Positions 1 to 23,986 of a DNA stretch of 23,986 bases are shown piece by piece (position 1 is the first letter of the stretch; the number at the start of each line of letters is the position of its first letter). The translations under genes were made by a program, and so were the position numbers. The notes under the pieces were generated by a model, which saw nothing but the letters and a program-made list of their open reading frames with translations, was not told where the DNA came from and made no database searches. The stretch is taken from positions 1-23,986 of IMG/VR virus record IMGVR_UViG_2529292907_000023. One strand, given 5' to 3'. This stretch comes from a virus. Its lineage: Duplodnaviria > Heunggongvirae > Uroviricota > Caudoviricetes.

Positions 1-1536
1 ATGGAAACCTGTTTTAAGATCCTTCAGCTCAAGTTCGACAAGAAGCTGACTAACCGTTGTATCGGACTGACGTTACACATCAGCGCCTCAACCGTTTTTG
101 AGGTTCTTGCCCGCTTCAAAGCCTCTTCTCTGTCATGGCCATTACCTGCTGATATATCCCATGACACGCTGGAGAAACTCATTTTTCCGCCCAAAGACAC
201 CTTTGCATCAGAGCTTGTAATGCCTGACATGTTGTACTTCGATACGGAAATGAGAAAACCAGGTGTGACGCGGCAACTGTTGTGGATGGAATACAAGGCA
301 CAGGCGGGTGACAAAGCGATGGGATACTCGCACTTCTGCCGTTGCTACCGGGAGTGGAAAAAAACGCGACGTCTCTCCATGCGCCAGGAGCATCGTGCCG
401 GCGAAAAGCTTTTTATCGACTTCTGTGGTCCTACGGTTCCTGTTATTAATCCGGACACCGGTGAGATACGCCGCGTGGCAATCTTCGTGGCCGTAATGGG
501 GGCGTCCAACTATACCTACGTTGAAGCGTGCGAAGGTCAGGACATGATGTCATGGTTAAATGCCCACAGCCGTTGCCTGACCTTCCTGGGCGGCGTACCG
601 AAGCTGCTCATCCCCGATAACCTCAGAAGCGCAGTGAAAAAGGCCGATCGCTATGAGCCTGTCATCAACGACAGTTATCAGGCACTGGCTGAGCACTATG
701 GCACGGTTATCATCCCGGCCCGACCACGCAAACCTAAAGATAAACCAAAAGCAGAAAACGGCGTCCTCATCGTCGAACGATGGCTTCTTGCCCGCATCCG
801 TAATGAAACCTTCCACACGCTCAGGGCGCTGAATGCGCGCCTTAGGGAGTTACTGACAGACATGAATAACCGGCCAATGAAGGGGTACGGCAATCAAACC
901 CGTGCAGAACGCTTCCGCATACTGGATGCGCCAGCACTCTCTCCGCTGCCTCTGGCACCTTATGAATACACGGAATACAAAGCTGTGAAGGTTGGCCCTG
1001 ACTACCACGTTGAATATGCCCGTCACTGGTACTCCGTTCCACACGAACTGGTCGGTCAGCGTCTGTCACTGAAGGCGGGGCAGTCGGTGGTACAGCTCTG
1101 GCACAAGGGGCAGTGTGTGGCGCAACATCCGCGCAGCACACATGAATATAAACACACAACCAATCCGCTTCACATGCCAGAGCGCCACCGGCAGCACGGG
1201 ACATGGACACCGGAACGCCTGATCGAGCAGGGAAAACGTACGGGCCCGTCCACAGGCCGGGTGGTTGAATCCATGCTGAAGGCAAAACCCCATCCGGAAC
1301 TGGCTTATCGTGCAGTTCTGGGGCTGCTGGCACTTCAGAAAAAATACGGCCCGGAACGGCTGGAAAAGGCCTGTTACGTTGCCCTGCACTATAACGCCCC
1401 TGACAGACGCTTTATCGACAATCTGCTGCGTCACCATCGGGAGAACCTGGAGCTTCCATTATCCCGCCAGGGCGAACAACATCCGGCATATGCTTCAGAG
1501 CATGAAAACCTGCGTGGTCCGGGCTACTACCACTGA
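1..1536 (+). CDS. istA: IS21-family transposase IstA (possibly N-terminally truncated by the window edge)
   Basis: 511-aa ORF starting at window position 1; central DDE-type region (DFCGP...D...E) and the C-terminal region typical of IstA; immediately followed by istB. Confidence 0.85.
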   Translation: METCFKILQLKFDKKLTNRCIGLTLHISASTVFEVLARFKASSLSWPLPADISHDTLEKLIFPPKDTFASELVMPDMLYFDTEMRKPGVTRQLLWMEYKAQAGDKAMGYSHFCRCYREWKKTRRLSMRQEHRAGEKLFIDFCGPTVPVINPDTGEIRRVAIFVAVMGASNYTYVEACEGQDMMSWLNAHSRCLTFLGGVPKLLIPDNLRSAVKKADRYEPVINDSYQALAEHYGTVIIPARPRKPKDKPKAENGVLIVERWLLARIRNETFHTLRALNARLRELLTDMNNRPMKGYGNQTRAERFRILDAPALSPLPLAPYEYTEYKAVKVGPDYHVEYARHWYSVPHELVGQRLSLKAGQSVVQLWHKGQCVAQHPRSTHEYKHTTNPLHMPERHRQHGTWTPERLIEQGKRTGPSTGRVVESMLKAKPHPELAYRAVLGLLALQKKYGPERLEKACYVALHYNAPDRRFIDNLLRHHRENLELPLSRQGEQHPAYASEHENLRGPGYYH

Positions 1537-1552
1537 CAGAAGGAACAACAGT

Positions 1553-2308
1553 ATGAGTGATAACCTGTTAAACAAACTGACCCAACTGAAACTCCCGGCG
1601 ATGGCCGGGAGCCTGATACGGCAGCGGGAAACGCCTCAGACCTACGACGAACTGTCGTTCGAGGAAAGGCTGACGCTGCTGGTTGATGACGAGCTTCTGA
1701 GCAGGGAAAACAGCCGTGTGGCACGGTTGAGAAAAAATGCCGGCCTGAAATACCAGGCAACACCGGAAGGGCTGCGCTATCCGGCCTCAAGAGGTCTGCG
1801 GGCTGAACAGATGAGAGAACTGCTGAACGGCCACTACATAACCCACAGGAAAAACCTGCTGATAACCGGTCCGACAGGATGTGGCAAGAGCTGGATAGCC
1901 AATGCACTGGGCGAACAGGCATGTCGACAGAAACACAGCGTCCGGTACTGTAGAACCGGGCGATTACTGGAACAACTGGCTCAGGGACGTGTTGATGGCA
2001 GCTGGCTGAAATATCTGAAACAGTTGCAAAAAATACAGGTTCTAATCCTGGACGATCTGGGGCTGGAACAGTTAAGTAACGCCCAGTGTAATGACCTTCT
2101 GGAGCTCATAGAGGATCGTTACGGACAAAGCAGCACGATAGTGGTAAGTCAGTTCCCGGTAGATAAATGGCATGGTCTGATGGAGAACCCAACAACAGCA
2201 GATGCCATCCTGGACAGACTGGTACATAACTCACACCGGGTGGTCCTTCAGGGAGAGTCACTGAGGAAAAATCCCCCGGTAGTGGAAAGCAGCGAAAAAA
2301 CGCGTTAA
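1553..2308 (+). CDS. istB: IS21-family ATP-binding helper IstB
   Basis: 251 aa from ATG at 1553 preceded by AAGGAAC RBS; Walker A GPTGCGKSW and Walker B LILDDLG; DnaC-like AAA+ fold typical of IstB. Confidence 0.9.
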   Translation: MSDNLLNKLTQLKLPAMAGSLIRQRETPQTYDELSFEERLTLLVDDELLSRENSRVARLRKNAGLKYQATPEGLRYPASRGLRAEQMRELLNGHYITHRKNLLITGPTGCGKSWIANALGEQACRQKHSVRYCRTGRLLEQLAQGRVDGSWLKYLKQLQKIQVLILDDLGLEQLSNAQCNDLLELIEDRYGQSSTIVVSQFPVDKWHGLMENPTTADAILDRLVHNSHRVVLQGESLRKNPPVVESSEKTR

Positions 2309-2329
2309 AAAGCGGTAGAAAAAGTTAAG

Positions 2330-2420
2330 TTCCCGGTTGATCGAATGGATGCGAATCGCTGATCGGACTTCGATGCCAATCCGTGATCGAATAGAGCGGA
2401 ATACGCAATCAGAGTGCCTC
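2330..2420 (+). repeat. Sub-terminal direct repeats of the IS21-family element (putative IstA binding sites)
   Basis: TGATCGAATGGA (2338-2349), TGATCGGACTTCGA (2360-2373) and TGATCGAATAGAG (2384-2396) within 60 bp downstream of istB. Confidence 0.5.
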
Positions 2421-6151: not shown

Positions 6152-6178
6152 TAAAAAAAGGCCCGCAAAAGCGAGCCA
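6152..6178 (-). terminator. Intrinsic terminator immediately downstream of the tRNA cluster
   Basis: On the minus strand GGCTCG-cttttg-CGGGCC followed by TTTTTTTAA, directly 3' of tRNA-Arg(UCU). Confidence 0.6.
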
Positions 6179-6191
6179 GGGAAAATAAGTG

Positions 6192-6268
6192 TGGCGCGTT
6201 GTACTGGATTCGAACCAGTGACCGATTGCTTAGAAGGCAATTGCTCTGTCCGGCTGAGCTAACAACGC
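6192..6268 (-). tRNA. argO: tRNA-Arg (anticodon UCU)
   Basis: Reverse complement GCGTTGTTAGCTCAGCCGGACAGAGCAATTGCCTTCTAAGCAATCGGTCACTGGTTCGAATCCAGTACAACGCGCCA folds as a cloverleaf (7-bp acceptor, GTTCGAATC T-loop, CCA end); anticodon loop CTTCTAA. Symbol assigned only by positional analogy to phage 933W. Confidence 0.9.
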
Positions 6269-6281
6269 AGGGTACAGATAA

Positions 6282-6358
6282 TGGACCGCCATCGAGGACT
6301 CGAACCCCGCGCAACCAGCTTCGAAGGCTGGCGCTCTATCCTGATGAGCTAATGGCGG
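6282..6358 (-). tRNA. argN: tRNA-Arg (anticodon UCG)
   Basis: Reverse complement CCGCCATTAGCTCATCAGGATAGAGCGCCAGCCTTCGAAGCTGGTTGCGCGGGGTTCGAGTCCTCGATGGCGGTCCA; anticodon stem CCAGC/GCTGG with loop CTTCGAA (U33, anticodon UCG, A37). Symbol by positional analogy only. Confidence 0.85.
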
Positions 6359-6365
6359 TATGTGA

Positions 6366-6441
6366 TGGTGGCCCTTGCTGGATTTGAACCAGCGACCTGG
6401 CGATTATGAGTCGCTCGCTCTCACCACTGAGCTAAAGGGCC
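6366..6441 (-). tRNA. ileZ: tRNA-Ile2-like (anticodon CAU, lysidine type; Met cannot be excluded from sequence alone)
   Basis: Reverse complement GGCCCTTTAGCTCAGTGGTGAGAGCGAGCGACTCATAATCGCCAGGTCGCTGGTTCAAATCCAGCAAGGGCCACCA is very similar to E. coli ileX (tRNA-Ile k2CAU) as I recall it; anticodon loop CTCATAA. Confidence 0.9.
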
Positions 6442-14748: not shown

Positions 14749-14774
14749 AGCCGGGTTACTCCCGGCTTTTTTTT
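14749..14774 (+). terminator. Plus-strand intrinsic terminator antisense to the early-right operon (oop-like RNA terminator)
   Basis: GCCGGG-ttact-CCCGGC followed by TTTTTTTT on the plus strand, abutting the stop codon of the minus-strand gene 14774-15481. Confidence 0.7.
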
Positions 14775-22381: not shown

Positions 22382-22618
22382 ATGGGCAATGTGATTCAAC
22401 TGGCTCCCAATGAATGGGTTTGTGAAAGCGTTCTTATCGCAATTACCGGGCTCAAACCAGGCACAATTCTTCGGGCCCGGAAAGAATGCTGGATGGTTGG
22501 AAGAGAGTATATTCACGTATCACCAGACGGTAATCCAAAGCCTTCCAGTGAATGTATGTATAACAGAAAAGCAATAGATGCCTGGGTCGCCTCAATGAAA
22601 AACAAACAACCCAGGTGA
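22382..22618 (+). CDS. xis: Excisionase-like protein (Xis)
   Basis: 78 aa immediately upstream of the integrase; GAGGT RBS; MGNVIQLAPNEWVCESVLIAITGLKPGTILRARKECWMVGREYIHVSPDG matches enterobacterial prophage excisionase-like proteins as I recall them. Confidence 0.65.
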   Translation: MGNVIQLAPNEWVCESVLIAITGLKPGTILRARKECWMVGREYIHVSPDGNPKPSSECMYNRKAIDAWVASMKNKQPR

Positions 22619-22673: not shown

Positions 22674-23986
22674 ATGGATAAAGTCAAATATCCAACAGGC
22701 GTCGAAAACCACGGCGGCACATTACGCATCTGGTTTAATTTTAAAGGTAAACGTGTCAGGGAAAATCTTGGTGTCCCTGACACTGCCAAGAACAGGAAGA
22801 TCGCCGGGGAACTGCGGACATCAGTATGTTTTGCCATCCGCACAGGAAGCTTTGATTATGCTGCACAGTTCCCTGACTCCCCCAACCTTCAGGCTTTTGG
22901 GGTAAGTAAAAAGAAATTACGGTGAAGGAACTTGAAGAAAAGTGGCTGGATCTGAAACGAATGGAAATCTCTGCAAATGCATTCAATCGCTATGAATCCG
23001 TTGCAAGAACGATGGTTCCGAAAATTGGAGGCAGTAGACTGGTGTCATCGGTAACCAAAGAGGAATTGCTGTATATCAGGAAAGATTTGCTGACCGGGTA
23101 TCAGAATTCAACGAAAAACAAAGCAGCAGCAAAAGGACGGAGCGTCGTTACTGTAAATTATTACATGACGACAATCGCTGGAATGTTTCAGTTTGCTGCA
23201 GATCACGGTTACTTAGAAGCAAATCCCTTCCAGGGAATTAAGCCTCTTAAAAGAGCCAGGGCAGAGCCAGATCCGCTAACTCGTGACGAATTTATTCGCC
23301 TGATAGATGCTTGCCGACATCAGCAGACGAAAAACCTGTGGTCATTGGCTGTGTACACAGGAATGCGTCACGGTGAACTGGTCTCCCTGGCCTGGGAAGA
23401 TATCGATCTGAAGGCAGGAACAATTACCATCAGGCGCAATTATACGAAACTTGGTGAGTTCACTCTACCGAAAACTGAAGCAAGCACAAACAGGGTTGTG
23501 CACCTTATCCAGCCCGCTATCAGTGTCCTGAAAAATCAGGCTGAAATGACAAGACTGGGTAAGCAGTACAACATCAAGGTGCAACTACGTGAATATAGAC
23601 GTTCAGTGAACCATGAATGTACTTTCGTGTTTAACCCTCAAGTGGTTAGAAAAAGCGAACAGGTAGGTTTTGTCTACAAAGTCGATTCTGTAGGTGACTC
23701 ATGGGAAACAGCCATTAAGCGTGCAGGGATCAGGCATCGAAAGGCATACCAGTCACGACACACTTATGCGTGCTGGTCATTATCTGCCGGAGCAAACCCA
23801 AGCTTCATTGCCAGCCAGATGGGCCATGCAAGTGCCCAGATGGTATTCAATGTATACGGAGCATGGATGACTGACAGCAATGCAGAACAGATCGCAATGC
23901 TGAATCAGAAGCTGACAGATTATGTCCCAATGATGCCCCATAGTCACCAAAGTGACACCAGAGGCTTATTAAAATCAGTAAGTTAA
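22674..23986 (+). pseudogene. int: Phage tyrosine integrase interrupted by a -1 frameshift in an A-run (arm-binding domain 22674-22925; core and catalytic domains 22922-23986)
   Basis: N-terminal ORF carries an arm-binding-type motif (KYPTGVENHGGTLRIWFNFKGKRVRE); the second ORF carries the catalytic core (R…HTYACWSLSAGANPSFIASQMGHASAQMVFNVY). The frames switch at GTAAGTAAAAAGAAATTACGG (about 22902-22922); a -1 shift at the AAA-AAG codons reads through as ...VSKKEITVKELEEKW... Confidence 0.75.

Follow-up and report, generated by a model that had tools for sequence, protein, structure and literature searches.

The DNA analyzed here (hereafter the window, a stretch of 23,986 nt) is identical across 11,313 nt to AIFW01000028.1, a contig of Escherichia coli DEC6B (GCA_000249615.2), and corresponds to positions 247-24232 of that contig. 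The window ends with the last base of an integrase gene, which sits at the yecE end of a lambdoid prophage, next to the excisionase gene (Table 1). Over the 1.39 kb that carries xis and int, nucleotide identity to the best-matching complete E. coli genomes, where the integrase gene is intact, is 99.8-99.9%; the figure is 99.9% for phage PhiR49_2 and 94.7% for phiP27, a Stx2e phage. In those relatives the integrase is a single ORF of 1314 nt that encodes 437 aa, the DUF1233 gene upstream of it is annotated as an excisionase, and the gene order is DUF1233 excisionase, int, yecE (DUF72) remnant, yecN, and cmoA. The source contig has the yecE remnant directly after the int stop. In one lineage (L004, L007, L011, and L122) the yecE remnant directly after the phiP27-like prophage has itself received another prophage, whose large serine recombinase is 507 aa long, giving tandem prophages.

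Table 1. Features of the integrase locus and of other parts of the window discussed in the text (window coordinates).
Feature	Position	Strand	Details
IS21-family element	1..2406	+	istA 1-1536, istB ending 2308; near lysis region, source-contig edge
Intergenic A7 run	6153..6159	+	A8 in 184/184 complete genomes aligned over the whole 61-nt query
Excisionase (DUF1233), intact, directly 5' of int	22382..22618	+	PF06806, E=1e-32
Integrase gene, phiP27-family tyrosine, yecE-targeting	22674..23986	+	1313 nt vs 1314 nt in intact homologs
5' fragment, 83-aa ORF, arm-type DNA-binding domain	22674..22925	+	Stop TGA 22923-22925
A5 homopolymer, lesion site	22908..22912	+	Alignment and run-length census; A6 in intact homologs
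3' fragment, -1 frame, core-binding and catalytic domain, otherwise intact	22910..23986	+	

The integrase gene occupies two frames instead of one. A first-pass annotation, made from the letters and their ORFs, had assigned the arm-binding and catalytic parts to different frames, the latter shifted by -1, and both its frames and its coordinates proved correct. The 83-aa ORF contains the Arm-DNA-bind_2 domain (PF12167) at residues 7-70 (E=5e-25, 87.6 bits, Pfam cut-off 22) and, once the frame has changed, ends in the tail GVSKKKLR before its stop codon. The 3' frame is open beyond a TAA at 22907-22909 and has two candidate internal starts, GTG at 22922 and ATG at 22961; read from the GTG it gives an ORF of 354 aa (22922-23986, + strand) that reaches the last base of the window and contains the Phage_integrase domain (PF00589; E=2e-18, 67 bits, Pfam cut-off 27.1). 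Its catalytic motifs YTGMRHGEL, RHTYA, and GHAS align with YTGVRVGEL, LRHTFA, and GHAS of XerA, and the nucleophilic tyrosine can be placed in NVYGAW, an assignment made by eye only. Judged by sequence, the two ORFs are parts of one phiP27-family tyrosine integrase. The break in its frame is a deterministic feature of the sequence, for which chance is not an issue, and the gene was already annotated as defective: the GenBank entry for the C-terminal fragment (EHV57322.1, 341 aa) was labeled by the depositors ‘qin prophage predicted defective integrase [Escherichia coli DEC6B]’.

Alignment with three intact homologs, a check proposed in the first-pass annotation, located the indel to the A run of the integrase linker. 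The homologs read AGT AAA AAA GAA and the window reads AGT AAA AAG AAA, which is the sole difference at the break; the site lies at codons 79-81, just past the arm-binding domain. A -1 shift, in which AAG (22911-22913) is followed by GAA (22913-22915), yields ...GVSKKEITVKELEEKWL..., an exact match to the intact homologs, and so bears out both the one-base loss and the -1 correction to a continuous integrase that had been suggested. When one A is added to the run, the gene encodes a 437-aa protein whose only change relative to the common allele (L001) is G309R, at int codon 309 (window 23598-23600; REYGRSV to REYRRSV). This G309R allele (P0031) is found intact on 8-16 other contigs, and the split version is recorded solely in DEC6B.

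We then determined how common the shorter run is. A 61-nt probe spanning the A run had matches in 265 complete RefSeq E. coli genomes with this gene, and none of them (0/265) has A5; the best matches were 98.4% identical over 62 nt, the additional position being the extra A. For IMG/VR and metagenome contigs, a single pattern that admits either run length was used. A6 was found in 103/105 IMG/VR contigs and A5 in 2/105, one of the two (L035) being the LT-68 draft, identical to L010; all metagenome contigs had A6, with A5 in 0/33. The possibility that intact homologs naturally carry two ORFs at this position, raised in the first-pass annotation as an outcome that would overturn its interpretation, was not borne out by these collections, in which a single ORF was present in 265/265, 103/105, and 33/33 sequences, respectively. 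One ORF thus spans both integrase domains in the 265 complete genomes, whereas in the window it is broken at A5. Among the proteins of the collection searched, the exact 83-aa product occurs on 21 contigs, compared with more than 1300 for intact forms (one sequence on at least 1000 contigs, another on 306).

The records with A5 (L004-L013, L026, and L035) have int haplotypes up to ~5-6% apart and differing prophage contexts, such that A5 is found on at least seven different haplotypes or prophage backgrounds. Every A5 allele that can be compared over the full int is as near or nearer to an A6 allele than to other A5 lineages. Given these divergent backgrounds and the proximity of A6 alleles, A5 has arisen, or been called, on at least seven occasions, and we rejected the idea that it represents a single inherited lineage.

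Most of the A5 assemblies contain many further single-base homopolymer deletions. L008 has 24 indels in 10 kb; L005 and L006, which are from one strain, differ by 3 SNPs but by 22 homopolymer indels; and L004 and L007 each have 13 gaps relative to a complete genome over 18 kb. L013, the Logan assembly of SRR096442, shows 0 SNPs and 4 extra homopolymer deletions relative to the deposited DEC assembly L012, which shows that the SRR096442 project reads are prone to homopolymer errors. As a control, two complete genomes that are 165 SNPs apart over 18.6 kb of this prophage have zero homopolymer-length differences. Two A5 records are cleaner: L011 (Logan assembly of ERR2750900) is the same as the complete genome FDAARGOS_1252 across 17,979 nt, with the int A5 as the sole difference, and L026 shows no other homopolymer error over ~5 kb. 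Elsewhere in these drafts, a T6 run in cutC is shortened to T5 in L010 (LT-68), L012, and L013, and also in L006 and L008, which splits cutC; the T5 allele is present in at most 2/5405 complete genomes and is likely a systematic homopolymer undercall in those drafts.

The DEC6B contig has other shortened A runs. Compared with its closest relatives, L156 and L158 (both short-read-type assemblies), DEC6B has 18 SNPs in 10,985 nt of int and chromosomal flank, and the only indels are in the int A run and in an A run of yecE. In the latter, A7 is reduced to A6 at 11776-11781 of L009, 1.55 kb past the window end, which divides the yecE (DUF72) remnant into ORFs of 159 aa and 67 aa; the A6 allele matches 1/5424 complete genomes. 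The same yecE run is shortened too in the error-prone L005, L006, L008, and L013. The intergenic A7 run of the window (Table 1) is a probable second homopolymer undercall in the DEC6B contig. A T8 run at 14767 was considered as a further error and dismissed as a natural polymorphism, being present at 8 other loci. With only three suspicious runs in ~33 kb of source contig, this is not a grossly error-ridden assembly. Length variation of another kind is seen in a GATGAA hexamer repeat at ~18292 of the window, within a 193-aa ORF, whose copy number gives in-frame differences of 6, 12, or 18 nt between close relatives.

When these results are considered together, the reading we favor, with a probability of roughly 60%, is that the missing A is a homopolymer undercall in the DEC6B draft assembly. 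The lesion has the character of such an error in that it is a single-base homopolymer indel, absent in near-identical finished genomes, with like indels in the same and sister assemblies. From its position and nature, its recurrence on different backgrounds (mostly in assemblies with further homopolymer deletions), its absence from high-quality assemblies, and the two other rare A-run deletions of the contig, all of which are observed directly, we infer that its cause is probably technical. The DEC6B strain itself would then probably encode a normal 437-aa integrase, with nothing unusual at the A run. A possible, although more tentative, explanation is a genuine and very recent slipped-strand deletion from A6 to A5 in DEC6B that has left an ordinary integrase pseudogene: the 83-aa arm-binding domain and the catalytic core would be produced as separate polypeptides, if at all, the prophage could no longer integrate or excise by arm-dependent recombination, and it would be locked in yecE. 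Any real event would have to be very recent, since besides the frameshift only G309R separates the gene from the intact consensus allele (L001) and the catalytic motifs are intact. The undercall is favored over this deletion because one added A restores a known protein, because A5 is absent from all 265 complete genomes and all 33 metagenome contigs, because A5 is recurrent and most of its other records come from assemblies that demonstrably have further homopolymer deletions, and because the source contig has two more near-unique one-A deletions in A runs, while the closest relatives and the identical G309R integrase allele elsewhere are intact. An observation in the other direction is that A5 is the sole difference in 17,979 nt between the clean, short-read-type L011 and a complete genome, which is hard to blame on a noisy platform, and the A5 deletion therefore probably does occur in nature; L026, free of other homopolymer errors over ~5 kb, points the same way. 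The same integrase is also truly inactivated elsewhere (among L167-L172 and L176), with independent nonsense mutations (K26, E30, and E46 each to stop), an inserted IS3-family element at int nt 54-58 in DEC6A, and a 1-nt deletion at nt 126, so that a natural lesion in DEC6B would be unremarkable. An IS21-family element has entered the same prophage, and the depositors took the gene to be defective, both of which are consistent with a real deletion.

Readings that ascribe a function or a special mutability to the A run are far less probable. It is very unlikely that the A6 of the int linker is a real, recurrent mutational hotspot that grounds yecE prophages, with A5 slightly leaky through a -1 slip of tRNA-Lys, a proposal that rests on the identity of ERR2750900 to a finished genome save for A5; if it were correct, rare residual excision or reversion to A6 would be expected. 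A phase-variable contingency tract, in which reversible switching of the integrase off and on would govern prophage mobility, is very improbable. Such a tract would account for the repeated indels at this position across many backgrounds, an A7 allele (L167) among them, and for at least one apparently genuine A5 inside an otherwise identical clone. However, known mononucleotide contingency tracts are typically of at least 8 nt and the int run has only 6 A, the off-alleles amount to ~0-2% and are concentrated in error-prone assemblies, and the L167 assembly with A7 also splits yecN, suggesting error there. We give similarly little credence to the idea that full-length integrase comes from -1 ribosomal frameshifting, whether programmed or tolerated, or from transcriptional slippage at T-AAA-AAG. 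A -1 slip of tRNA-Lys on A_AAG (22910-22913) would indeed give the exact wild-type protein, and of all tetramers A_AAG is the one most prone to shift in E. coli (PMC4066793). A GGGG at 22899-22902, ~6-8 nt before A_AAG, is a candidate Shine-Dalgarno-like stimulator; it makes a weak anti-SD match and is part of Gly-Val codons that intact alleles have too. The two-ORF layout is not conserved, with a single ORF (A6) in 401/403 higher-quality sequences. The heptamer is imperfect, as the first-pass annotation had remarked: its first base is T (T_AAA_AAG), the only Z_ZZN tetramer is A_AAG, and the P-site tRNA would have to re-pair on UAA. An A5 run is also much too short for efficient slippage by RNA polymerase. 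Tetramers that lack a stimulator shift at ~0.15% against a background of 0.11%, and A_AAG reached a few percent only with a strong pseudoknot (PMC4066793); no downstream stimulatory structure was detected in the 77 nt at 22914-22990 (MFE -10.4 kcal/mol, z=0.22 vs shuffles). On the basis of the lack of conservation, the imperfect heptamer, the absence of downstream structure, and tetramer shifting at background level, programmed frameshifting was rejected, and the earlier preference for a real one-base loss or a homopolymer sequencing error over recoding fits the evidence. If A5 is real, background slippage could supply at most a trace of wild-type integrase.

The first-pass annotation had further combined the frameshift with the IS insertion and a missing endolysin to suggest a decaying prophage, and of these three arguments the insertion stands. 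The IS21-family element (Table 1) encodes an IstA of 511 aa with rve and Mu-transposase C domains and an IstB ATPase (Pfam), and its right junction interrupts, after ~58 nt, a small hypothetical gene next to which relatives carry the lysozyme gene. Only 246 nt of the source contig precede the window, with the contig start falling within this IS21 copy or shortly before it. The assembly thus broke at a repeated IS, which would place the lysis and structural genes on another contig. We therefore discarded the missing endolysin as a sign of decay, for it is an effect of the contig edge: the gene would lie off the contig, and its absence from the window is uninformative about loss. The frameshift, as evidence of decay, is more likely an assembly artifact. 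The remaining early, regulatory, and replication genes agree with those of intact relatives and are free of frame-breaking indels. The window also contains three tRNA genes at 6192-6441 (- strand), for Arg-tct, Arg-tcg, and a tRNA with a CAT anticodon that is assigned to Met by ARAGORN and to Ile in RefSeq relatives; the trio lies between methyltransferase and esterase genes, as in related Stx-type prophages.

The split integrase therefore carries little biological weight, as either a homopolymer miscall in an early draft or a routine one-base pseudogenizing deletion in a prophage integrase. It does advise caution: in such drafts, frameshifts in A or T runs that lack read support should not be taken as signs of prophage decay or recoding, and lysis genes that appear to be missing at a contig edge ending in an IS are no evidence of loss.

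Several known systems offer points of comparison. The deletion resembles the undercalls of early pyrosequencing or long-read drafts in being a single-base deletion in a run of at least 5 that is absent from finished genomes, with companion deletions, always of the -1 type, in its own assembly and in sister assemblies; unlike simple draft undercalls, the same deletion is present in the clean assembly L011. If the deletion is real, the gene would resemble the grounded lambdoid integrases of the cryptic K-12 prophages as an integrase put out of action by a small lesion, here within an IS-bearing prophage, and sister genomes with nonsense and IS lesions in the same integrase extend the likeness. 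It differs from them in that the rest of the int of the window is without decay, and the lesion may be absent from the strain. The AAA-AAG lysine codons recall the frameshift sites of dnaX (A_AAA_AAG) and of IS1 and IS3, and a -1 slip at the int A run would join two functional domains into one protein, as happens in IS3 OrfAB; at int, however, the heptamer starts with T, no hairpin or pseudoknot follows it, and homologs do not share the split. The closest counterparts are the yecE integrators phiP27 Int (NP_543053.1) and its E. coli relatives (WP_000362005.1; PhiR49_2 XSB43055.1), at 94.7-99.9% nucleotide identity over xis and int. They share with it the succession of Arm-DNA-bind_2 and Phage_integrase, the DUF1233 excisionase upstream, and the junction with the yecE remnant, and the window departs from them in being one A short of A6, which turns the 437-aa ORF into an 83-aa ORF and a 354-aa frame, and in the private G309R substitution.
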